From: Theionarchaea archaeon
GTDB lineage: Archaea; Methanobacteriota_B; Thermococci; Methanofastidiosales; SZ-28-30
DNA: 64,000 nucleotides
Direction of reading: 5' to 3'
NCBI GenBank assembly: GCA_018992685.1
Contig: JACVGT010000007.1
Location: 32,001-96,000 of the forward strand
Shown here in pieces: positions 16,905 through 28,280 of the stretch. Each line of letters starts with the position of its first letter. Positions within the stretch are counted from its first letter, which is position 1. A program made the translations under genes and the position numbers. The notes below the pieces were generated by a model that worked only from the letters and a program-made list of their open reading frames with translations, did no database searches and was not told the DNA's origin.

Positions 16905-17825
16905 CTATTTCTTTCCCTTCTCGTAGTGTTTCCCAAGAGCTGCCGGTGGTACAGCTCTCTTCACTGCTCCAGCCAAGACCAGAATAGTCAGAACATAGGG
17001 AATCATCTGAATGAACTGATTGGCAGCCACTGTCCCCTGCAATTTCATTTGCAGAGCATCAGTAAAACTGAAGAGAAGACTTGCTCCAAAGGCTCCTGCA
17101 GGGTTCCATTTGCCAAAGATGTTCGCCGCCAGAGCGATGAATCCTCTCCCTGCAGACATGTTTTGGCTGAACAGGTTCAACCATCCCAGGGACAGGTAGG
17201 CACCCCCCAACCCCGATAGCATGCCGCTGGCTGTTACAGATAAATACTGAATCCGGTGCACGTTGATTCCCACGGTATCTGCAGCCTCTGGGTGCTCACC
17301 TACTGCCCTAATTCTCAATCCCAGAGGAGTCCTAAACATGATGACCCAGGCAGCAACAACAATCACAATCATGATGTATACCAGAGGGTTTTGCTGGTCA
17401 AAGATATCCTTGAGGTAGGGAATGTCTCTGATCAGTGGGATGGACAAGGGCTTCAATCCGGAAACAGGGTCTGACGCTCCCCTATTTCCCCAGATGATCT
17501 GGAGCAACAGCGTGGTAAGCCCAAGAGAAAGAATATTCACTCCCACTCCACTGACGACCTGATTTGCTTTGAACTGGATACATAGTACCGCATGCAGCAA
17601 TCCAAAGGCCCCGCCTGCCAGGACTGCGCACAGCACACCGATCCAGGGATTTCCCAGAAAATGTGTGCCCACTACACCAGCAAAAGCACCCATCAGGATC
17701 ATGCCTTCCAGTCCGATATTAATGATACCACTGCGTTCTGAGTACGCGCCCCCGATGGAGGCCAGGGCAATAGGGGGAGATATCCTTAAGGTTGCACCCA
17801 GCAGTATGGCAATACTAGAAAGCAT
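16905..17825 (-). CDS. Nucleoside/sugar ABC transporter permease (BPD_transp_2)
   Basis: SERSGIINIGLEG, RIRAVGEHPEAADTVG, GRGFIALAA. Confidence 0.92.
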   Translation of the reverse strand: MLSSIAILLGATLRISPPIALASIGGAYSERSGIINIGLEGMILMGAFAGVVGTHFLGNPWIGVLCAVLAGGAFGLLHAVLCIQFKANQVVSGVGVNILSLGLTTLLLQIIWGNRGASDPVSGLKPLSIPLIRDIPYLKDIFDQQNPLVYIMIVIVVAAWVIMFRTPLGLRIRAVGEHPEAADTVGINVHRIQYLSVTASGMLSGLGGAYLSLGWLNLFSQNMSAGRGFIALAANIFGKWNPAGAFGASLLFSFTDALQMKLQGTVAANQFIQMIPYVLTILVLAGAVKRAVPPAALGKHYEKGKK

Positions 17826-18894
17826 TGGCAATCCCTCCTTTCCTGATTTTCTTGAAGATTCTGAACATTTCAGGAGCTGCCACAAACAGTATCACGATAC
17901 CCTGGATCACCACCACCAGATCTGTGGGGACATTGGTCATCTGTTTCATGACCATCCCTCCGTTCCGCAGAGCACCAAACAGCAAAGCACCCAGTACTAC
18001 TCCCACAGGATGGTTTCTCCCCAGAACAGCAACAGCGATCCCGTCAAATCCGTACCCCGGGGAGAATCCGAAAATAAACCGTTTGTGCAGTCCCAGTACC
18101 TCGCCTGATCCACCCAGTCCTGCCAGCATTCCTGATATGAACATCGATATGATAATGCTTTTCTGGACACTTATCCCCCCGTATTCTGCAGCTGTGGGGT
18201 TGAGTCCTACTGCTCTGATTTCGTATCCCAGGGTAGTCCTATACAGAATATAGTACGTGACACCGACGCAAATGAGAGCCACGATTATGGCTGCTGATAA
18301 CTGGGTGGAGGGTACCAACCGTGGAAGCTGGGCTGATGGTGTAACAACATCAGTCTGAGCAATCCATCCTTCAGCCTTCAAAGGATAGTTGGCCAGATAG
18401 TTGCACAGGAGCACACCGATGTAATTCATCATAATGGTGGTAATCACTTCATGGGCACCCACCCTGGCTTTCAACACACTGGGCACCAGAGACCATGCAC
18501 CACCTGCAAGGGCCCCGGCTCCCAGGGCCAAAGGAATGTGAAAGAACCAGGGAAGCCAGGCAAAGTTGATCCCTACCACGGCAGCAGTAATGGCCCCAAC
18601 GTACAGTTGTCCCTCACCACCAATGTTGAATAACCCACATCGAAAGGCGAAGGCCACGGTCAGCCCTGTAAAGATGAGGGGTGTTGCCCTTGTGAGGGTC
18701 TGGGCAAAATCATACGTACTGCCGAATGCACCTTCGTACAGTGCCTTGTATGCCTCAAGAGGCGATGAGCCTGCAAGATATACAATCACTGCTCCCACCA
18801 AAAGGGCAGCAATAACAGCAATGATTGAGATAAAAATGTCCATCAGACTTTCTTTTTGAATAACCTGAGTTATTTTTATTAATCGTGGATTCAT
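17815..18894 (-). CDS. Nucleoside/sugar ABC transporter permease
   Basis: GLFNIGGEGQ, GYEIRAVGLNPTAAEYGG, GYGFDGIAVA. Confidence 0.92.
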   Translation of the reverse strand: MNPRLIKITQVIQKESLMDIFISIIAVIAALLVGAVIVYLAGSSPLEAYKALYEGAFGSTYDFAQTLTRATPLIFTGLTVAFAFRCGLFNIGGEGQLYVGAITAAVVGINFAWLPWFFHIPLALGAGALAGGAWSLVPSVLKARVGAHEVITTIMMNYIGVLLCNYLANYPLKAEGWIAQTDVVTPSAQLPRLVPSTQLSAAIIVALICVGVTYYILYRTTLGYEIRAVGLNPTAAEYGGISVQKSIIISMFISGMLAGLGGSGEVLGLHKRFIFGFSPGYGFDGIAVAVLGRNHPVGVVLGALLFGALRNGGMVMKQMTNVPTDLVVVIQGIVILFVAAPEMFRIFKKIRKGGIANAF

Positions 18895-20420
18895 GCGTGT
18901 CCACCTGCCATCAATAATCCCAGTTCTTCTTCAGTGGTCTTCTGAGGATCTCGCTCTCCCACAATTTTCCCTTCGTAGATGACAGCGATCCTGTCAGAGA
19001 GACAGCGAACCTCATCTAAATCTGCAGAAATGAGAAGTATGGCCTTGTCCTTTTTCCTCATGCTGAGAAGGGTTTCATGGATGAACTCGATTGCGCCCAC
19101 GTCGAGACCTCTGGTAGGCTGTGAAGCGATAATAATCTCGGGCTCTCTTCCCAGTTCTCTGGCCACAATCACTTTCTGCTGGTTTCCACCTGACAGATAT
19201 TTGACCTCACTGTGTACCCCAGTTCCTCTAATGTCAAAGGTCTCCACCAGCTCGGACGCATATGAATCCACCTTATCATATTCCATTCTGAACCCGCGGG
19301 AAAAAGGAGCCTTAAAGTGGGATCCCAGTATCAGATTCTCGGATAGAGAGAAATCCTGGATGAGCCCTCTCTTCTGGCGATCTTCAGGGATGTGGGATAC
19401 TCCTGCGTTGATGAAGTCCCTCGGGGAGGAATGTGTTAGATCTTCCCCGTTTACAAGAATCTTCCCCCCGCTTGGGCTTCGCAGTCCCGTTGCCGTTTCT
19501 GCCAGTTCCAACTGGCCATTGCCTTCAACTCCCGCAATGCCAAGAATCTCACCTTTCCGCAGTTCCAATGTTATCCCCTGTAGGGCTTTCACTCCTCTCT
19601 CATTGTATGCTTCCAGGTTCTGCATCTGCATCACAGCCCCCTTTGGGGGGTGAGGAGGTTTTTCCACTACCAGGCAGACTTCTCTGCCCACCATCATTCT
19701 TGCCAGACTGGCAACATCTGTTTCCCCGGTGTGAACTGTTCCCACCAGTTGTCCTTTTCTCAGCACGGTGATGCGGTCACAGGTCGCCATGGGTTCCTTC
19801 AGTTTGTGGGTGATGAAAATGATAGTCTTTCCTTCTTCTTTTAACGATTTCATAACTTTGAACAGTTCTTCCCCTTCTTGTGGGGTCAAGACTGCTGTTG
19901 GTTCATCCAGAATGAGAATTTCAGCTCCCCGGTACAATGCTTTCAGAATCTCTACTCGCTGTTCAATGCCTACTGATATATCCTGGATCTTGGCTCTGGG
20001 GTCTACAGCAAGACCATACCGTTTTGAGATTTCTTCAACATCTCGTGCTGCCTTTTCTCTGTCCATGAGGAAATGAGTCTCCGGCTCAACACCCAGGACA
20101 ACGTTCTCAGCCACAGTGAAGGGAGGCACTAACATGAAGTGCTGGTGGATCATGCCAATACCCAGTGAGATCGCATCATTGGGATTTGTTATCGCAGTGG
20201 GCTTACCATTAACAGAAATTTCACCAGAATCAGGCTGGTATAGCCCATACAAGACGTTCATTAACGTGGTCTTTCCCGCACCGTTTTCTCCAAGAAGAGC
20301 ATGAATTTCTCCTTTTCTAACTGAAAAAGTAATATCGTCATTCGCCAGAACACCAGGGAAGCGCTTGGTTATGTGTTGCATCTCCACAGCATTGATGGGT
20401 TCTGCATTCATTGCCATCAT
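18891..20420 (-). CDS. Nucleoside/sugar ABC transporter ATP-binding protein (two NBDs)
   Basis: GENGAGKTT, LILDEPT, LSGGNQQK, SQPTRGLD. Confidence 0.93.
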   Translation of the reverse strand: MMAMNAEPINAVEMQHITKRFPGVLANDDITFSVRKGEIHALLGENGAGKTTLMNVLYGLYQPDSGEISVNGKPTAITNPNDAISLGIGMIHQHFMLVPPFTVAENVVLGVEPETHFLMDREKAARDVEEISKRYGLAVDPRAKIQDISVGIEQRVEILKALYRGAEILILDEPTAVLTPQEGEELFKVMKSLKEEGKTIIFITHKLKEPMATCDRITVLRKGQLVGTVHTGETDVASLARMMVGREVCLVVEKPPHPPKGAVMQMQNLEAYNERGVKALQGITLELRKGEILGIAGVEGNGQLELAETATGLRSPSGGKILVNGEDLTHSSPRDFINAGVSHIPEDRQKRGLIQDFSLSENLILGSHFKAPFSRGFRMEYDKVDSYASELVETFDIRGTGVHSEVKYLSGGNQQKVIVARELGREPEIIIASQPTRGLDVGAIEFIHETLLSMRKKDKAILLISADLDEVRCLSDRIAVIYEGKIVGERDPQKTTEEELGLLMAGGHA

Positions 20421-20534
20421 AAGCGTATTTCCCTTAAAAAGGCTACCGGTTGCATCTCTGGTGGCAGTATTTGATGGGCGAATTCTCACGATAACAGCTT
20501 AGGCAGTTCCTGCAAAATCAGACACCTCGCCCCT

Positions 20535-22379
20535 CTACTTCCTCATGGCTGTCTTTCTTTCATGATTTTCGGTTCTAGCCTCTGCCCCTGGCACTCTTTT
20601 GTCTGCTCTCAGCACTGAGATGATGTTCTCGAGAGACTGGTCATAGTACAATACGCCCCTTTCTCTGAGAATCTCCAGTATGTGCAAAAGCTCTTTCTCC
20701 TCCAGATGGGAAAAGTGTTGCTGTACCTGGGTGAATGACGTTATGCTGTCACAGAAAACTAGAAGGTCGGTCTCGTCTCTGCTAAAGGTACAGGAAAGAG
20801 ACCTTGATCCTTTTTCCTTAAAGGCAGAACAATCGGGATATTCTGTCCACTGATAATCGCTTCCAGCCCGGGAATAAAACTGCAGAAGTCTTTGAAAGGT
20901 GTTCCACAAAAGGTAGTGGCGAATTCTCCCTGCAAAGAATCCAAAGAATTCAAATCGTTCCCCCTCTGGCAGCTGCAAGACAGATGCGATTTCTGCCCAC
21001 ATGGGGTCTTTGTTGTAGGCATCCCTTTCATGTTCTGACATCTCATTGTAATATGGTGATCCCTTGTACAGTGTGAAGTACTTGGGGACAATGGAATACT
21101 TCCTCAGGAAGAATCTCAGAAATCTCAAGTTCACACAACTCTCCAGGACGTCTTCCTCAGTTTCAGGTGGCGTCTCTGCTACAAAATTCCCTTTGATCTC
21201 GAGGTTGTGTTGATCCCCGAGCTTGAGAGCCTGTATATTGTGGGCAAAAGAGTGTCTCTTTTCCATTTTCTTCAAGAGAGCATCAGTCATTGCTTCAAAT
21301 CCGATCTGCACGATTTCAAAACAAACCTTTTTCATGGCACGTGCTGTATCGGGGTTGATGAAGATTGGAGATGCTTCTGCAAAAAGGCGGTAGGGACGTC
21401 CTCTTCTTTCAGAACTTTCCACAATCAGGGCAAGCAGATGGTGGAATCGCTTCTTGTTACCGGGGAGTTCAGTATCTACAAATACGAATGTGTCACCACC
21501 GTGTCTCTTGGACTGGAATTCCAGTTCTTCGACAATGTTCTCAGGAGATCGAGCCCGATATGAGAATTCCTCATTCAGAACGCAAAATTTGCACCTGTTC
21601 CAGGGGCAGGAGCGCGACCCCCAAATGGGGATGATGACCCGCATGTCTTCATGAATGTGGGTTTTCAGTGCCGCAAAATAGTCTGTGTGGTCTGCAAATG
21701 GGTATGAATCCAGATCACAGCTTTCAGAATGCTTGTTTGTTGAGATGATGGCGGCACCATCCCGGTACACCAGATGAGGGATCTCGGTGAACGTTCCCTC
21801 TCGTATCCCCTGAATCAGATGAACCAAAGGGTATTCTCCCTCCCCCCATACAGCGTAGTCAGCCAGCTCAAATACCTTCATAAAGGCGTGAGCCTGTTCA
21901 TCATTGCGAATCCCTCCAATGACGATCTGTATTTCGGGGTTTAATTCTTTCAGTCGCCTCATTACATAAGAGCTCAGAAGCCACTGGTAGGTCTTTAGAG
22001 TAAATCCCGCCAGAGGTTCTTTGTAGAGGCCATTTTGGTATATGTAGTCATCGATTTTTGTTCGAAGTGTGTCTACAAAGGGAGGTATTTTCCCCTGATC
22101 AAAAAAGGGTGAAAAATACTGGTCGAGAACAGTCGTCTCGTGATGGGCACCTGAGAGATGTCTCACTGTATACAGAACGGGAGTATTAAGAGAGGACAAG
22201 GATGAAAACACAGGATAGTCCCCAATGTGATCCTGGAGTTCTGACAGCTCCTCAGCAAGTATTAGATTCCAGTAGATATTTGTCACAGAGATTCCCCTTG
22301 ATTGCAGGAACCCTTTCAGATATCCCAAAGCAGGATTGGGAATATCGTAACTGTAGGGGGGCAAACAGTTTAGTATCAT
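20535..22379 (-). CDS. Cobalamin-dependent radical SAM enzyme, RiPP-maturation C-methyltransferase-like
   Basis: N-terminal PP...P.PALGYLK B12 domain, IVIGG, GEGE, SRSCPWNRCKFC cluster motif (Cx4Cx2C), QIGFE; ATGA overlap with upstream rSAM. Confidence 0.82.
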   Translation of the reverse strand: MILNCLPPYSYDIPNPALGYLKGFLQSRGISVTNIYWNLILAEELSELQDHIGDYPVFSSLSSLNTPVLYTVRHLSGAHHETTVLDQYFSPFFDQGKIPPFVDTLRTKIDDYIYQNGLYKEPLAGFTLKTYQWLLSSYVMRRLKELNPEIQIVIGGIRNDEQAHAFMKVFELADYAVWGEGEYPLVHLIQGIREGTFTEIPHLVYRDGAAIISTNKHSESCDLDSYPFADHTDYFAALKTHIHEDMRVIIPIWGSRSCPWNRCKFCVLNEEFSYRARSPENIVEELEFQSKRHGGDTFVFVDTELPGNKKRFHHLLALIVESSERRGRPYRLFAEASPIFINPDTARAMKKVCFEIVQIGFEAMTDALLKKMEKRHSFAHNIQALKLGDQHNLEIKGNFVAETPPETEEDVLESCVNLRFLRFFLRKYSIVPKYFTLYKGSPYYNEMSEHERDAYNKDPMWAEIASVLQLPEGERFEFFGFFAGRIRHYLLWNTFQRLLQFYSRAGSDYQWTEYPDCSAFKEKGSRSLSCTFSRDETDLLVFCDSITSFTQVQQHFSHLEEKELLHILEILRERGVLYYDQSLENIISVLRADKRVPGAEARTENHERKTAMRK

Positions 22380-23704
22380 TCATGGGCCTCCTTTTGCTTA
22401 CTGACATATGTTTTCACCTGTGGCAGCCCGAAAACCTGCCTGGTAAAATCCACGGTGAAACAGCCAGGAGCATCCAGTGTTCCTTTCTCTCTCAATGCAA
22501 TGGCAGGGCATCCCCCCATACACCGGGGAAGCATGACGCAGGCTTTACACTCAGTAATGGCCAGGGGGTTGCGGGCCATCCACGAGTAGTATGCAGGTGT
22601 TTTGTCCAGAGAACCACGAGAGTTCAGAGACCCCACAGCATGGCGGGTGTCTCCTACCAAAGACATGCACTTGTAGACACGGCCATCCACATTGATGATG
22701 TGAAACCAATCAGTAATACCAGCACACAAGGAAAAGTACACACCAATTCCAAAAGGGAGTGTGGTGAATCCTTTGTGAGCAGCCATTTCCATGACTTCAC
22801 TGAAGAGATCTGAAGTCCCCGGATATCCGTAAGAACTGTAGTAGTGGGTACAGTAATCCATGCGGGGAGTAACCGTCCCAAAGTAGGTATGGGCCTTCTC
22901 AAGGCCAGCTTCTCTCAACATTTCAAGAAAGGTAATGATATTGTCTTCCCATACGTTAATTCGCATAATCAGATTCATGCCATGATCTTCAACACATTGG
23001 GCACCCTCTACCACTGATTGCAGGCTGCTTGTCTCATCAGGGAAAACCCTCCTGGTGTGGTGGTAGTACTCAGGTGCATCAAAAGTGATATGAATATCTG
23101 CTACCGTGAACTGTGAGAGGTTGTCGAGTCCTTCAGGAGTAAGGAGAGTTCCATTGGTGAAGAGCTTGATGAGGAGAGAAATACCTGCTTCACTACATGC
23201 CTCTTGCAGGGTTTCAGTAAGAGAGGTTATGCACTCTTGATTCAAGAGTGGTTCTCCTCCGTAAAGACTCACAAAGAGCGTGTCAATGCCTCGTACGATC
23301 TGATTCTCAGCAAAGGTTACCCCTCTTTCTGCTACCTTCTTGCTCATATGCCCAGTGCAGGCAGAAGAATTCCTGTAGCAGTACCTACAGTTCAAGTTGC
23401 ATTCGTGCGTGACAATGAAGTTCAAGAATGCAACTCTCCCAAGAGGAGAGCCCCGATATCCTGTAGAGGGGAGGCACCACTTCTTCTGTTCCAAGGAAGC
23501 CTGTATCAAGTTCATCTCTTGACCGGTGTCCTCTATGAGAAGTCCCTGCTTTGATAGTGCTTCAATAATCTCAGGGGAGCCTTTTCCGGTCATGAGGACG
23601 TCATACATTTCAGAATCAATCACTGTGAGAGACCCGTTCAATGTATTGTATACAAGGAAATCCTCTCTAAATGGGATAATAAAGCAGTACTGTGATCTCT
23701 GCAT
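22376..23704 (-). CDS. Radical SAM/SPASM peptide maturase 2
   Basis: RRE-like N-terminus (LVYNTLNGSL), CNLNCRYC, YGGEPLL, TNGTLL, SPASM C...GRVYKC...CKACVMLPRCMGGCP...C. Confidence 0.88.
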   Translation of the reverse strand: MQRSQYCFIIPFREDFLVYNTLNGSLTVIDSEMYDVLMTGKGSPEIIEALSKQGLLIEDTGQEMNLIQASLEQKKWCLPSTGYRGSPLGRVAFLNFIVTHECNLNCRYCYRNSSACTGHMSKKVAERGVTFAENQIVRGIDTLFVSLYGGEPLLNQECITSLTETLQEACSEAGISLLIKLFTNGTLLTPEGLDNLSQFTVADIHITFDAPEYYHHTRRVFPDETSSLQSVVEGAQCVEDHGMNLIMRINVWEDNIITFLEMLREAGLEKAHTYFGTVTPRMDYCTHYYSSYGYPGTSDLFSEVMEMAAHKGFTTLPFGIGVYFSLCAGITDWFHIINVDGRVYKCMSLVGDTRHAVGSLNSRGSLDKTPAYYSWMARNPLAITECKACVMLPRCMGGCPAIALREKGTLDAPGCFTVDFTRQVFGLPQVKTYVSKQKEAHE

Positions 23705-23709
23705 AATAA

Positions 23710-25053
23710 TCAAACCCAGATGATCTTTCCCGCCTTGAACCGGTCAGGAAGCTTCTTTTCGAGGTACCAACGAAGCTGATGTTTCATTTCCTGGTACGGT
23801 GCATAGCATCCAACTGCGTGGAATGTCCCATGCTTTTCATATGCAACAGCAGCACATCCTCCCCCACATGAGGGTAGCATCTGGCACTCACGACATTCCG
23901 GTATCTGCAGGGGGTCTCTGCTCATCCAGTCGTAGTAGGTCCATGTATACTCTGGTATGGTACCGTCTTCTGAAATATGACCAATGGAATGGTTTTTCTG
24001 CCCCACGAAGGTGAGACACTTGTAAAGATCTGCATGAGGATCTATGATGAAGGTTCCTTCCCCTAGGAATCCACAAAAGACGTGAGCTGGCTTGTGGGTG
24101 CGAATGACAGCAGCCGCTTGACCTTTTTGATCCACAATATCTCTGAATTCAGCAAGTACCTCACGGGCTTCTTCCTCTTTAATGCACTTGGAGTAGTCCT
24201 TACATGCTTGAGTTGATGCCCCCACTGTACCACAGCGCACAGGGACATTCTTGAATCCCCTCTCCTGAAGCTCGTCCAGCAGCTCACCGATGAACGGTCT
24301 GCTTTCAGAATCCACGTTCACCCTAAAGCTCACTCCGACGTTTTGGTCCTGCAGAATGTGAGCTGATTGCATCATGTCATCAAAGGTACCTCCTCCACTC
24401 TTGTAGAATCGTTTGGTGTCGTGGATGCGTTTGGGACCATCCAGCGTGATCTGTACGTAGTCTGTGTGGTAGCGCTTCAACGTTTCAGCTATTTCAGGTG
24501 TGACCAGAGTACCATTTGTCACCATCATTGTCACGTATGAGATGCCGTGGTCTTCTGCCCAGGAAAAGCAGGAATCCATAATGTACTCAGAATCGTCGAA
24601 TCTGAGCAGTGGTTCACCACCATACAGCGACACAGAAAATTCCCGCGCGTGAGTGTCTTCCACGTATTTCTTTATGAATTTCACAGTTCTTTCCCTGGTG
24701 TCAGCATTCATTGTCCCGCGGAATAGCTCTCCTTTTCCTTCATAGCAGTATGGACATGCTAGATTGCAGGCATATGTCGTTATGAGCATGAAATGGGGAA
24801 AATCCACCGTGTATTTCCTGTATTCATATCCTACCTTGAATTTTCGAGATTCATCAAAATCATCTTCTATGATTACCTTGAGCGCTGCAAGAGATTTGAA
24901 CAAGTCAGAATCCAGAATGTCAATATTCCCGGCTTTCAAAGCTTCCTTCAGCTCTTCATCTATTCCTATTACTGCACCACTCATCATGTTGGCCAACAGG
25001 TATTCTCCAGGAGTCTCTGTGGGGATAACTATGTTGAAGTTTGACACTTTCAT
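23710..25053 (-). CDS. Radical SAM/SPASM peptide maturase 1
   Basis: MKVSNFN RRE-like N-terminus, CNLACPYC, YGGEPLL, QITLDG, SPASM C...DLYKC...CRECQMLPSCGGGC...C; RBS GAGGTGA. Confidence 0.9.
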   Translation of the reverse strand: MKVSNFNIVIPTETPGEYLLANMMSGAVIGIDEELKEALKAGNIDILDSDLFKSLAALKVIIEDDFDESRKFKVGYEYRKYTVDFPHFMLITTYACNLACPYCYEGKGELFRGTMNADTRERTVKFIKKYVEDTHAREFSVSLYGGEPLLRFDDSEYIMDSCFSWAEDHGISYVTMMVTNGTLVTPEIAETLKRYHTDYVQITLDGPKRIHDTKRFYKSGGGTFDDMMQSAHILQDQNVGVSFRVNVDSESRPFIGELLDELQERGFKNVPVRCGTVGASTQACKDYSKCIKEEEAREVLAEFRDIVDQKGQAAAVIRTHKPAHVFCGFLGEGTFIIDPHADLYKCLTFVGQKNHSIGHISEDGTIPEYTWTYYDWMSRDPLQIPECRECQMLPSCGGGCAAVAYEKHGTFHAVGCYAPYQEMKHQLRWYLEKKLPDRFKAGKIIWV

Positions 25054-25068
25054 GAGGTTCACCTCAGG

Positions 25069-25099
25069 AAAAAAGAAAGGCAGGTTGAACTGCCTTTTG
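25069..25099 (-). terminator. Hairpin plus U-tract between precursor and first maturase
   Basis: Minus strand AAAGGCAG-ttcaac-CTGCCTTT followed by CTTTTTT. Confidence 0.6.
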
Positions 25100-25107
25100 T
25101 TATAGAC

Positions 25108-25215
25108 TTACACATAGGGGTGGCAAATTCTGCAGCACCAGGAACCAGTTCCTTCCGTGATGCACAGAGGCTCCATGATTTGCTCTTCTGCTTCGATGAG
25201 GATAGTCATGTTCAT
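25108..25215 (-). CDS. Putative RiPP precursor peptide, 35 aa (MNMTILIEAEEQIMEPLCITEGTGSWCCRICHPYV)
   Basis: Read manually, below the ORF-track cutoff; ATG 25215, TAA 25110-25108; acidic leader and Cys/aromatic core; TATA box 20 nt upstream; directly upstream of the rSAM/SPASM genes. Confidence 0.8.
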   Translation of the reverse strand: MNMTILIEAEEQIMEPLCITEGTGSWCCRICHPYV

Positions 25216-25234
25216 AGATTCCACTTCCTATTGC

Positions 25235-25250
25235 TATATAAAGTTTCTCT
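25235..25250 (-). promoter_or_regulatory. BRE/TATA promoter of the RiPP precursor
   Basis: Minus strand AGAGAAAC-TTTATATA ending about 20 nt before the ATG. Confidence 0.65.
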
Positions 25251-25527
25251 TTATCTTTATATACTTTTCTATTCATATGAATTCTACTAATTTCGTCACT
25301 CTTATAGTAATCAAATAAGAGCAAATGCAGAAGCCAGTAGTCTTTAAAGACAATATCTCTTGATATTTTGGACTACTTTCGTCCATGTGAGGTTAAATGC
25401 AGAGATTCTCAACCGAAATGCCCCCTTTTCTCACTTTTGTAAAAAGTGATAATGTTCGGTAGAAGAGCTCTCCCTCACAGATTTTGCAGAATCTGGTAAT
25501 TGCACCTGCGATCATGAGCTGGCCCGA

Positions 25528-25560
25528 GAACAAAAAAGTAAAAAGTAAAAAGAAGAAGTA
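25528..25560 (-). terminator. T-rich terminator after the BMP gene
   Basis: Minus strand oligo-T runs (CTTTTTA/CTTTTTT) immediately after the stop codon. Confidence 0.55.
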
Positions 25561-26601
25561 TTAATCCCAGGTGTATTCACCGGCCTCGTCAATACCAGTG
25601 GGAACCTTGATTTCGCCAGATGCGATCTGCTCCCTGTAGTCTTCAATGATGTCTCGTATGTCATTAGGCACGTGCTCGCAAGCACCAACACCATTCTCTT
25701 TTGCGCCAAAGCTCTGTATGCCGCCTGCAAAAGTCCCGTCGATTACCTGCCGTATGGTCTCGTATACAGCTACATCCACACGCTTTATCATACTGCATAA
25801 GAAGGTCGTTACCGGTACTCCCTCAATGGTGTCGCACTGATCCGCATCTACGCCAATGACCAATCCACCACGTTCAAAAGCCGCCTGGATAGCTCCCAAG
25901 CCAGATCTTCCGGCAGCAGCGAACACGATGTCTGCCTCTCCGTCATACTGAGCAAGGGCAAGCTCCTTTCCTTTTGCAGGGTCTACCCAGTCGCCCACAT
26001 ACTTCCAGGTGACCTCAACATCTGGATTGACGTACTCGGCTCCAAACTTGTAGCCAGCCAGGAATTTTCGAATCAAGGGTATGTCCATTCCACCTACAAA
26101 TCCAATCATATCAGTTTCAGTTTTCAGACCAGCAGCTGCTCCTACCAGGAAACTACCTTCGTTTTCCCTGAATACAAGAGAAGCCACATTAGGTTTGTCT
26201 ACCACCATGTCCACGATCGCAAACTTCTGGTCGGGGTATTCATCTGCAACAACAGTGATGGCATCTGCCTGATCAAATCCTATACCTATTATCAGTGCAT
26301 ATTCCCCGGACTTGGCGTACTGCCTGTGGAATCCTTCGTACTCAGCGATGGCTGTAGGTTCAACATAGTCAAATTCAATGCCGAAATCATCTCTAGCCTT
26401 CTTGATACCTACGTAACAACTATCATTGAAGCTCTTGTCTCCTAGTCCACCAGTGGCAAAGACAACAGCAATTTTCAATTCGGGGGGTGGGGGTGTAGAA
26501 GTTGGTGTCGGAGTTGTGGTTTCTTCCTCCTGTCCGATGCATCCCAATGTAAGGGAGCACAAAACTACCAGGGTGAACAGCATCTTAATACTTTTGTTCA
26601 T
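25561..26601 (-). CDS. BMP family ABC transporter substrate-binding lipoprotein (purine nucleoside type)
   Basis: Lipobox TLGCIG, Thr/Pro linker, GGLGDKSFN, IGFVGGM, IGVDADQ. Confidence 0.92.
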   Translation of the reverse strand: MNKSIKMLFTLVVLCSLTLGCIGQEEETTTPTPTSTPPPPELKIAVVFATGGLGDKSFNDSCYVGIKKARDDFGIEFDYVEPTAIAEYEGFHRQYAKSGEYALIIGIGFDQADAITVVADEYPDQKFAIVDMVVDKPNVASLVFRENEGSFLVGAAAGLKTETDMIGFVGGMDIPLIRKFLAGYKFGAEYVNPDVEVTWKYVGDWVDPAKGKELALAQYDGEADIVFAAAGRSGLGAIQAAFERGGLVIGVDADQCDTIEGVPVTTFLCSMIKRVDVAVYETIRQVIDGTFAGGIQSFGAKENGVGACEHVPNDIRDIIEDYREQIASGEIKVPTGIDEAGEYTWD

Positions 26602-27386
26602 ATGATTCCCTCCACGCTCACAGAGCTTGAGTAGATTTAAATACGTTTCGATGAAGCACCGAGGGTTCACTTTGATGTTAGAAGGAGCGTATGCGAGTCG
26701 TTGCTTTTCCGAAATGATGGTCCATTTGCAGGCCAATGAAGTCCTCCTCAAGAGCAACTGGGATTCGCTTTTTCTTTCTTACCCTCTTCCAGCTTTTCCT
26801 TCTTGTTTACAGGGTTCCGGTACAGTCCTTGTGTGAGAATCCCCTTTCTCATTCTTGAAGAAGTTCCTTCATTCTTGAGACCCCTCGCCCAGCCTCAAGG
26901 AAGCGTTGCTCTTCAGAACCAAAAAAGCTTTAGGGTCAAGGACTGAAAGGGAGGTGAAAGATGTGAATCTGCCCGTTTCAGTAAAACCCTCAATTTCCCC
27001 GCTCTCTCGGTTCTGGGTTCAGAAGGAAGGAGTTTTCGTGACCAACGGCGCCCGTGATTTAAGGGACCCAGAAAGCTGTAGCTCCCACTGTTAAAGTTGA
27101 AATAATTAGAACTCTTTGCTGAAGTCCCATCGGCATTCAAAATGTTCTCGTTCTCACTACCTGTTCTGGTGGGTAGGACGCCCCGGCAGCCCTGTCCCAA
27201 AGCTTCTGCTCTCACGTACATTTTGATCTCCTGGTTCTTTCAACTTCCTTCCTCTGGAGACTGAGATGGAGGTTCAGTAGCGTGGATTCCTGCAGCCTGC
27301 ATCTCAGTCCATGTGTACAATCCTGTCTGAAAAACGGGATACACCTACGGAAGATTTATATAGGGTTTATATTAATTTTCTGTTGC

Positions 27387-28280
27387 ATGGAAGCGCACCA
27401 GTTGGACATTGTCTATGCATACGTTCAGTATTGCAGCGACACGAAGGAAGTGAGGTACTCAAAATTCCATAAATGGTATAAGCCTTATAACCGTAAACAA
27501 TCTACCTTCAGACTTTTGAATAGGGCAGTTGAGGAAAAGATCATATTTCCACCACGCATTTTCTGCATACAGAAAGTTAAGGTCAACCTGGTAGAACACA
27601 AGGAAGTTCCCCTCGTTGATCAATTCGAGAAGATTAGCAGCCAAGAAGACACGTTCTATGCAGTCCTCTTGCTGGGGGCTCATTCACTTCTGTATTTTTC
27701 GGCAAGTGATACCGGGACCAACTTGACATATTCGAAATGCATCTTTCCGAGCTATCCCCCAAAGAAGGAGATACAGCATATTGATCCGTGCCTTCATGAA
27801 CCCAGAAAGCTACCTTGTATGGCCCCACCTGACTGGTCTTCTTTTGACTGGGAAGTGTTTCAGAAAAGGAGGGATCCCACTGAATCAAGTATCAAGATTG
27901 GAGGGGTGCTTGGAGTTTCCCACAGAAGAGTCCTGAATAGCTATAAAAGAATTCTAGGAGACTGTTCCGTGTGGATTCCTTTCTTTCCAAAGGGCTACGG
28001 GAATTACACACCCTACTTTGTTTCTTTTGAAACGGATTATGAGACTGGGGTTGTTGAGGAACTGAAAAAGATCGACAGATCCAGCTACGTTTACAGAATT
28101 GATGACACAATGCTTCTGAATCTGTTCTTTGAAAGGCGTCTTGAGATTGACAGCATGTTGCAGTTAGAAAAAAAGGGGATAATACACGATCTCCGTGTAT
28201 CCTCCCCAATGTATAGTTTTGAACGATTTCAATCTCAACAAGGCATTCCAGAACCAGGGCCATCTCCAGACAAAGTGTAA
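27387..28280 (+). CDS. Hypothetical protein with Lrp/AsnC-like HTH (putative regulator)
   Basis: DWEVFQKRRDPTESSIKIGGVLGVSHRRVLNSY HTH-like segment; TTTATATA upstream. Confidence 0.5.
   Translation: MEAHQLDIVYAYVQYCSDTKEVRYSKFHKWYKPYNRKQSTFRLLNRAVEEKIIFPPRIFCIQKVKVNLVEHKEVPLVDQFEKISSQEDTFYAVLLLGAHSLLYFSASDTGTNLTYSKCIFPSYPPKKEIQHIDPCLHEPRKLPCMAPPDWSSFDWEVFQKRRDPTESSIKIGGVLGVSHRRVLNSYKRILGDCSVWIPFFPKGYGNYTPYFVSFETDYETGVVEELKKIDRSSYVYRIDDTMLLNLFFERRLEIDSMLQLEKKGIIHDLRVSSPMYSFERFQSQQGIPEPGPSPDKV

Follow-up and report, generated by a model that had tools for sequence, protein, structure and literature searches.

A conserved Theionarchaea cassette of a Cys-rich 35-residue peptide and three radical SAM enzymes, a candidate ranthionine-type modified-peptide pathway

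Does a 35-codon open reading frame (ORF) that lies ahead of three radical S-adenosylmethionine (SAM) enzyme genes in an archaeal genome encode the substrate of those enzymes and, if so, what could they make of it? The question is raised by a 4.7-kb cassette on the minus strand of a 64,000-nucleotide stretch of DNA from an uncultured sediment-dwelling Theionarchaea archaeon (assembly GCA_018992685.1, contig JACVGT010000007.1, positions 32,001 to 96,000), hereafter the window, to which coordinates refer unless another contig is named. The cassette encodes the peptide, 2 radical SAM enzymes with a SPASM domain (maturases 1 and 2) and a third radical SAM enzyme of the cobalamin (B12) type. Our analysis indicates that the locus is a genuine modified-peptide pathway, conserved and of a general kind already known, whose precursor family and maturase ortholog groups are new among the radical SAM/SPASM systems that make peptides synthesized on ribosomes and modified after translation (RiPPs). 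With a probability of about 0.6, we read it as a four-gene RiPP operon whose product would carry ranthionine-type thioether crosslinks, which in ranthipeptides connect the sulfur of a Cys with a carbon of the acceptor other than its alpha carbon, together with probable C-methylation; the proposed chemistry is that of related enzymes.

The whole cassette is a compact unit (20535-25263, minus strand) in which a TATA-like box is followed by the peptide ORF, a hairpin with a T-run, the 2 SPASM enzyme genes and the B12-type gene, so that every part listed in the initial annotation, including the abutting or overlapping enzyme genes, is present. Two TATA-like boxes can be read upstream of the peptide ORF, TATATAAA at 25256-25263 and TTTATATA at 25235-25242. 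In a sister genome (G001) the first is retained as TATTTAAA and the second is degraded, and judging from its sequence the first box is likely the archaeal promoter of the peptide gene. The TATA promoter of the initial annotation therefore exists, although the conserved box falls just beyond the end coordinate that had been given to the unit (25250). The peptide gene (25108-25215, 35 codons plus stop) starts at an ATG at 25215, ends with a stop codon at 25108-25110 and is preceded by a Shine-Dalgarno (SD)-like motif, GGAAGTGG (25221-25228), 5 nt ahead of the ATG, whose counterpart in a more distant metagenome locus (L030) is AAGGAGGTG in the same place; a longer version of 38 residues, starting at GTG 25224, appears in the ORF list.

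Between the peptide gene and that of maturase 1 lies the hairpin with its T-run (25066-25097). The hairpin itself (25076-25097) has an 8-bp stem and a 6-nt loop, continues into CTTTTTTCCT and folds with -16.9 kcal/mol (z -2.27), a stability that was equalled by 7 of 200 shuffled sequences. It is identical in G001, and in L030 another stem sequence, of 12 bp, with a T-run stands in its place; its sequence marks it as a likely partial terminator or 3'-end stabiliser. An Rfam scan of positions 20000-27500 found no RNA family. The gene of maturase 1 (23710-25053, 447 amino acids) begins at an ATG that follows the SD motif GAGGTGA (the start in the ORF list is GTG 25062), that of maturase 2 (22376-23704, 442 amino acids) has its ATG 5 nt past the maturase 1 stop, and the ATG of the B12-type gene (20535-22379, 614 amino acids) overlaps the maturase 2 stop as ATGA, a 4-nt overlap that is kept in G001.

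The encoded peptide, MNMTILIEAEEQIMEPLCITEGTGSWCCRICHPYV, divides into a short leader (approximately residues 1-14) and a Cys-rich core (residues 15-35) with cysteines at positions 18, 27, 28 and 31. Comparison with G001, whose maturase 1 is 92% identical, gave 4 synonymous changes, a single Arg-to-Lys replacement and a stop codon changed from TAA to TGA within the ORF; divergence is clearly greater in the DNA upstream. At L030, where maturase 1 is 73% identical, a 35-residue ORF occupies the equivalent position; codons 15-35 differ from ours by 11 synonymous and 3 non-synonymous changes, and the leader (codons 1-14) by 1 and 8, respectively. Purifying selection acts on the amino-acid sequence of the peptide, especially on its Cys-rich C-terminal part, and because the ORF is conserved across homologous loci and peptides far beyond chance, it is a real gene.

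We then searched a profile built from 3 peptides against 1.84 billion proteins. Among the 5 matches at E≤1e-3, 2 (P0123 and P0124) are peptides of 30-40 residues with the same core, and their cluster adds 3 more. The core EPxCxxEGxGxWCC is invariant in all 8 homologous peptides, and the complete set of invariant residues comprises M1, L6, A9, E15, P16, C18, E21, G22, G24, W26, C27 and C28, hence 3 of the 4 cysteines. The tails vary (RICHPYV, KICSPYF, VYWW, YV), each being aromatic with Tyr and/or Trp. The other 3 matches (P0121, P0122 and P0125) are long proteins, of which P0121 and P0125 are repeat proteins that we read as chance likenesses. P0125 (499 amino acids) repeats PLCLFHGQGCWKR about 14 times, with Lys-Arg- and Glu-Ala-rich spacers in between, and resembles a protease-processed repeat precursor of a Cys/Trp peptide, its match to the profile being probably fortuitous.

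The distribution of the peptide is narrow. Within the order, 2 of 34 genomes encode it, the window's own and G001; the other 10 rows of that search all had E≥0.006, and the best of them (in G008) is spurious, lying antisense within a 347-residue ORF. No second copy was found in the genome of the window (1 match at E≤10), and no NCBIfam precursor family matched the peptide, its relatives or 3 other Cys-rich ORFs of this genome. A pattern scan of 185,579 species genomes, from which the window's own genome was possibly left out, yielded 6 loci with 1 ortholog (G001), and a scan of metagenomes yielded 1 ortholog among the 80 loci retained, one of its search patterns being too generic.

If the peptide is the substrate, homologous maturases should have similar small ORFs beside them, and this is what was found: in each of the 3 orthologous loci read directly (the window, L024 and L030) the peptide gene stands next to those of both maturases, and the whole-library hidden Markov model (HMM) search contributes 5 further peptides. 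In addition, the longest contigs bearing homologs of the peptide, of maturase 1, of maturase 2 and of the B12-type enzyme have the same sizes for all 4 (17680 and 73878 bases), and pairs of these homologs recur on contigs of equal size (66544, 12878, 4883, 5153, 3821, 3074 and 11977 bases). Both maturases form well-delimited ortholog groups. For maturase 1, identity ranges from 55 to 92% over 19 cluster representatives and then falls to 38%; for maturase 2, the search gave 11 relatives with identities of 47-82% and no further match at E≤1e-60. A quick tree of 72 rows placed the maturase-1 sequences (18 rows) and the maturase-2 sequences (12 rows) in one clade apiece, both with a support of 100 (Shimodaira-Hasegawa-like approximate likelihood ratio test, SH-aLRT); the 2 clades were not resolved as sisters, and the stem of maturase 2 is long (1.44). 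The B12-type gene is found in the window and in G001, with 84% identity between them. These results indicate that the peptide is co-inherited with both SPASM enzymes and that the B12-type enzyme is usually present, but optional.

The 2 maturases are 45-kDa enzymes that share 30% identity. All 3 enzymes of the cassette pass the radical SAM profile PF04055 (70.1, 50.3 and 54.7 bits for a cut-off of 29.5), and the SPASM profile TIGR04085 scored 56.8 bits with maturase 1 and 45.4 bits with maturase 2 (cut-off 27). The cluster motif CX3CX2C and the SPASM cysteines (C330, C349, C390, C393, C399, C403 and C419) are invariant across 115 aligned sequences, both maturases among them, in full agreement with the intact Cys motifs initially reported for these enzymes.

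Both were also said to carry RiPP recognition element (RRE)-like N-termini, for which we looked for an N-terminal winged-helix (PqqD-like) domain of 3 strands and 3 helices. The AlphaFold2 model of maturase 1 is of high confidence (predicted local distance difference test, pLDDT, 95.5; 92-98 over residues 1-90) and superposes on CteB over 403 residues, starting at model residue 7 (Z 28.6), and on TigE from residue 1 (Z 24.8), but on anSME, which lacks an RRE, only from residue 87 (Z 28.9). Because CteB and TigE align from the very N-terminus and anSME does not, maturase 1 is predicted to have an RRE-like domain at approximately residues 1-85. For maturase 2 a similar N-terminus is predicted from alignment of the homologous region only. 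The Pfam PqqD profile did not match the N-terminus of either maturase at E≤10. The RRE claim is thus upheld as a fold prediction for one enzyme and as an alignment for the other.

Which known systems are the closest? The best NCBIfam matches of maturase 1 are CefB (383.1 bits), TIGR04463 (215.5), Clo7bot (202), geopeptide (184) and PapB (160.9), and for both SPASM enzymes the 5 best families consist of maturases that act on Cys-rich peptides; DynA (112.6 bits), the SCIFF maturase (99.3), QhpD (96), the cyclophane maturases YhhB, FxsB and GrrM (66-88) and the mycofactocin maturase (65.6) match more weakly. CefB ('Cys-every-fifth', NF038107) is the best match of both enzymes, shares their domain order (RRE, radical SAM, SPASM) and aligns over positions 1-437 of 444 with maturase 1 and 1-433 with maturase 2, but the scores of 383.1 and 218.6 bits fall short of its cut-off of 600, which none of the 9 matches in the host genome passes. 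Moreover, the cysteines of our peptide, at 18, 27, 28 and 31, do not recur every fifth residue, a trait of CefB substrates that we take from the family name only; our search of the literature for the chemistry of this family found none.

The second-best family of both enzymes (215.5 and 162 bits, cut-off 525) is TIGR04463, that of CrpC from the archaeon Methanococcus voltae. According to the available part of its 2026 report (PMC13692751), CrpC combines an RRE and a SPASM domain with 2 auxiliary clusters, has a Cys-rich substrate encoded next to it and forms ranthionine in an archaeon with the Cys ahead of the acceptor. In contrast to the cassette, with its candidate 35-residue substrate, 2 maturases and a B12-type enzyme, the CrpC substrate described there is a 28.8-kDa protein, CrpA (PMC13692751). 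Since CrpC was shown to make ranthionine in an archaeon, systems of this kind are no longer uncharted in archaea. PapB (freyrasin) installs Cys-Asp and Cys-Glu thioethers and CteB (thermocellin/SCIFF) Cys-Thr thioethers, as given in the portion of PMC11002830 available to us, and this side-chain thioether chemistry suits the invariant C18-x-x-E21 of the cassette peptide.

For both maturases CteB is the closest solved protein by sequence (E 1.6e-22 with maturase 1), and for maturase 1 it is tied with anSME as the closest solved fold, RRE included, at an identity of only 19-20%. PapB reaches 160.9 and 112.1 bits (NF047865, cut-off 340) and the SCIFF maturase 99.3 and 72.1 bits (TIGR03974, cut-off 425). 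Neither PapA nor the SCIFF peptides are related to the precursor, and 2 maturases would act here on one short core. Literature searches on archaeal RiPP genome mining, ranthipeptides with cobalamin enzymes and Theionarchaea radical SAM proteins, covering main texts, did not find the peptide family described; Supplemental Data set 1 of PMC13692751 may list relatives.

In the third enzyme the radical SAM core is flanked by a Rossmann-like domain at the N-terminus and a beta3-alpha3 domain at the C-terminus (approximately residues 508-590). Its model (pLDDT 92.4) matches solved cobalamin radical SAM enzymes from residue 1, with Z 23.2 for TokK, 22.2 for OxsB, 21.6 for both TsrM and CysS, and 19.5-23.2 over the set of TokK, OxsB, TsrM, CysS and MgmA; AprD4, entered as a radical SAM diol dehydratase, fits equally (Z 21.5). 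The TIGR03975 profile of RiPP C-methyltransferases aligns over its full length (residues 6-577, profile positions 6-594 of 606) with 163.4 bits, under the cut-off of 281.85, and the papers listed for this family gave no functional information. According to its predicted model, the enzyme has the cobalamin-dependent radical SAM fold and may bind cobalamin. The earlier description of the protein as a B12-dependent enzyme is consistent with this fold and with the full-length TIGR03975 alignment, although the scores of TIGR03975 and of the cobalamin-binding profile PF02310 both stay under their cut-offs. It differs from TIGR03975 and the solved enzymes in its cluster motif, CX4CX2C instead of CX3CX2C (CPWNRCKFC, with C258, C263 and C266, at 21582-21608), which is invariant in 78 sequences, and in the extra C-terminal domain, while like TIGR03975 enzymes it is encoded in a RiPP cassette.

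The C-terminal domain (20610-20855) has 3 strands and 3 helices in the predicted model and is RRE-like in topology only. Homology with the RRE of maturase 1 was considered and is not supported, profile comparison giving a probability of 10% over 25 columns; Pfam searches with the domain alone returned no match at E≤10. An ESM Atlas lead pointed to DUF5825 (0.91, 162 shared features), without HMM backing. The B12 family is large, with at least 120 cluster representatives at 44-84% identity, and all the named ones belong to Theionarchaea or Methanofastidiosia. The genome of the window (G000) holds 4 paralogs (C7:58869-60695, C10:21397-23286, C3:87635-89455 and C39:938-2779; 37-53% identical, E≤2e-113), some of which adjoin other radical SAM genes and a gene for a 210-residue protein.

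From these data we propose the following scheme. The 35-residue precursor would be transcribed from its own TATA promoter, and the hairpin with its T-run would let only part of the transcripts continue into the 3 enzyme genes. The leader (MNMxhLhxAEE..) would be bound by the RRE domains of both SPASM enzymes, each of which would abstract a hydrogen atom from the core and close a ring. The likeliest rings are ranthionine-type thioethers from the sulfur of C18, C27 or C28 to a side-chain carbon, with E21 as an example of an acceptor; the invariant C18-x-x-E21 and the C27-C28 pair, together with the chemistry of related enzymes, suggest 2 or 3 such rings, which could be split between the 2 specialised maturases. 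The B12-type enzyme, where present, would then most likely C-methylate an unactivated carbon of the peptide; a predicted complex of the two scored 0.01 against a mark of 0.32, a value that speaks neither for nor against the scheme. There is no exporter, protease or immunity gene in the cassette, and since neither protease nor exporter is encoded there the product may stay intracellular. By analogy with known systems we infer the assignment of the substrate, the binding of the leader, the type and position of the crosslinks, the methylation and the biological role. The multiply crosslinked, methylated peptide foreseen in the initial annotation is, with this proposed chemistry, supported as an interpretation, as every refuting condition open to computation turned out in favour of it, with the qualification that the B12-type gene is not a fixed member of the cassette.

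Several observations weigh against the thioether-and-methylation reading. The enzymes of the cassette miss all the curated family cut-offs, so that function cannot be transferred by family membership, and C-C, C-N or C-O links or cyclopropanes are also products of SPASM enzymes with a similar fold; the fold match to TigE (Z 24.8) and the DynA score (113 bits) are matches to such non-thioether chemistries, and the invariant Trp and aromatic tails would suit a non-thioether link too. The B12-type gene is absent from the 13.3 kb examined at L030, which places methylation outside the conserved core of the pathway, and PF02310 gave 25.1 bits with its product, under the cut-off of 32.1, even though precomputed annotation lists PF02310 for the protein. 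Finally, beyond the 3 loci read directly, the sharing of contigs by the cassette homologs is circumstantial, as it is deduced from equal contig sizes and not from DNA that was read.

In one alternative, the locus is a RiPP cassette in which one or both SPASM enzymes would attach C-C, C-N or C-O links to the aromatic tail or to the invariant Trp, with the cysteines serving, for example, in metal or cluster binding. Such links are known from streptide, darobactin/dynobactin and the cyclophane-forming maturases. W26 is invariant in 8 of 8 peptides, every tail offers Tyr and/or Trp, DynA and the cyclophane maturases are recognizable among the family matches, the long stem of maturase 2 suggests a diverged function, and fold alone cannot separate these chemistries. 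We nevertheless consider this alternative unlikely, since the top 5 families of both enzymes all mature Cys-rich peptides, neither enzyme has a better solved match by sequence than CteB, and 3 cysteines are invariant, with a Cys-x-x-Glu spacing like that of ranthionine motifs as far as these are described in the available part of PMC11002830. More doubt attaches to the role of the third enzyme, which, with a chance that we hold to be minor but real, is not the methyltransferase of this peptide and either performs another radical reaction on it or acts on another substrate and is merely co-located. Ring contraction and cyclopropane formation are also carried out by B12-type radical SAM enzymes. 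Its gene is dispensable at L030, the TIGR03975 score is under the cut-off, OxsB, which is not a methylase, and the dehydratase AprD4 fit the fold as well as methylases do (Z 21.5-22.2), the CX4CX2C motif is unusual, and the 4 paralogs occur elsewhere in the genome in other contexts. These arguments are countered by the conserved overlap with maturase 2 in G001, by the equal contig sizes that tie B12 homologs to the peptide or maturase 1 on 6 further contigs, and by the best family match, which is to RiPP C-methyltransferases along the full length.

The nature of the product can also be questioned. It is improbable, in our estimate, that the peptide gives rise to a small molecule that is conserved and stays in the cell, such as a redox cofactor or metal chelator, and not to a secreted antibiotic-like peptide. 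Pyrroloquinoline quinone (PQQ), mycofactocin and the crosslinked quinone-bearing subunit of quinohemoprotein amine dehydrogenase would be its analogues, and a frozen core with a free leader, as in our codon comparison (11 synonymous to 3 non-synonymous against 1 to 8), is a pattern typical of PQQ-type and SCIFF-type precursors rather than of arms-race bacteriocins. The invariant Glu and Trp 5 residues apart, the lack of exporter, protease and immunity genes in the cassette and the scores with QhpD (96 bits) and the mycofactocin maturase (65.6 bits) point in the same direction, whereas the 3 loci read have no cofactor-type partner genes (oxidase, peptidase, dependent dehydrogenase) beside them, and a cassette that is patchy (2 of 34 genomes of the order) and inserted fits an accessory trait better. 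With a similarly small chance, the core EPxCxxEGxGxWCC, unchanged while the maturases diverge to 56% identity and the leader varies freely, would be turned by 3 radical enzymes into a small, conserved molecule that is redox-active or binds metal. Hardly credible, in comparison, is that the small ORF is conserved for another cause, for instance as a regulatory upstream ORF, and that the enzymes modify a different protein. The binding and modification of the peptide by the enzymes do rest on inference, and the relative CrpC modifies a 28.8-kDa protein and not a short peptide, as stated in the accessible part of PMC13692751; yet selection acts on the amino acids of the Cys-rich C-terminal part, the peptide accompanies the maturases in 3 genomic contexts, other maturase clades in these genomes have their own unrelated Cys-rich small ORFs in the same position, and the cassette contains no Cys-rich protein gene other than that of the peptide. 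Of all these readings, the RiPP operon with ranthionine-type crosslinks and probable C-methylation is the one that we favor.

The surroundings of the cassette give an indication of its history. It splits an operon for a PnrA/Bmp-type (nucleoside-type) ATP-binding cassette (ABC) transporter (17815-26757, minus strand), lying between the gene of the substrate-binding protein upstream (25561-26757, minus strand; PF02608, 229.9 bits; with a T-rich tail after its stop codon) and those of its ATPase (18891-20489, minus strand) and permease (17815-18894, minus strand) downstream. A genome from another genus of the family (G003, L134:1-2419) has only 44 bp between the binding-protein gene and the ATPase gene, and at L030 the cassette has other neighbours. 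The peptide follows the maturases into 3 genomic contexts. The uninterrupted operon and the different neighbours at L030 indicate that the cassette is mobile and accessory. In the window, expression of the ATPase and permease genes may now require either a new promoter or read-through from the cassette. A 332-residue ORF near the transporter (27282-28280, plus strand) had no Pfam match at E≤0.001. DNA contigs from 4 runs span the cassette and include variants that differ from the window by approximately 12-15%; no RNA run was listed for the stretch. Contigs of related strains cease to match the window at 25324, and the match is restored at 25526 or at 25541 (joints seen in 2 runs), so the intergenic stretch upstream of the promoter region varies between strains.

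The host genome contains other gene sets of this type, with 36 matches to maturase 1 at E≤1e-5. Several of its other radical SAM/SPASM gene sets are preceded by small Cys-rich ORFs unrelated to ours (C2:35882-36109, minus strand; C10:13953-14156, plus strand; C18:10930-11088, C1:310154-310240 and C1:310538-310645, all minus strand). They include a 75-residue ORF with 6 CALEVQPTF repeats and 2 paralogous peptides that share EIDQCMCCA, and none of them matched an NCBIfam family.

Archaeal peptides modified by radical SAM enzymes have hardly been studied, and the first archaeal ranthionine-forming enzyme that our literature searches found dates from 2026, as documented in the available part of PMC13692751. 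The cassette offers a compact test case, with a 35-residue candidate substrate, 3 invariant cysteines, 2 diverged SPASM enzymes that always occur together and an optional B12-type enzyme, and it could reveal how 2 maturases share one short core and what role a B12-type enzyme with a CX4CX2C motif plays. Because the peptide gene is below the size of routine annotation, it and its relatives are easily overlooked. If the cofactor reading were true, archaea would have in this product their own equivalent of PQQ, mycofactocin and similar cofactors derived from peptides, and not a bacteriocin-like peptide. Theionarchaea genomes are rich in such systems, as the 36 maturase matches in this one illustrate, which bears on the interactions or the metal handling of these sediment archaea.

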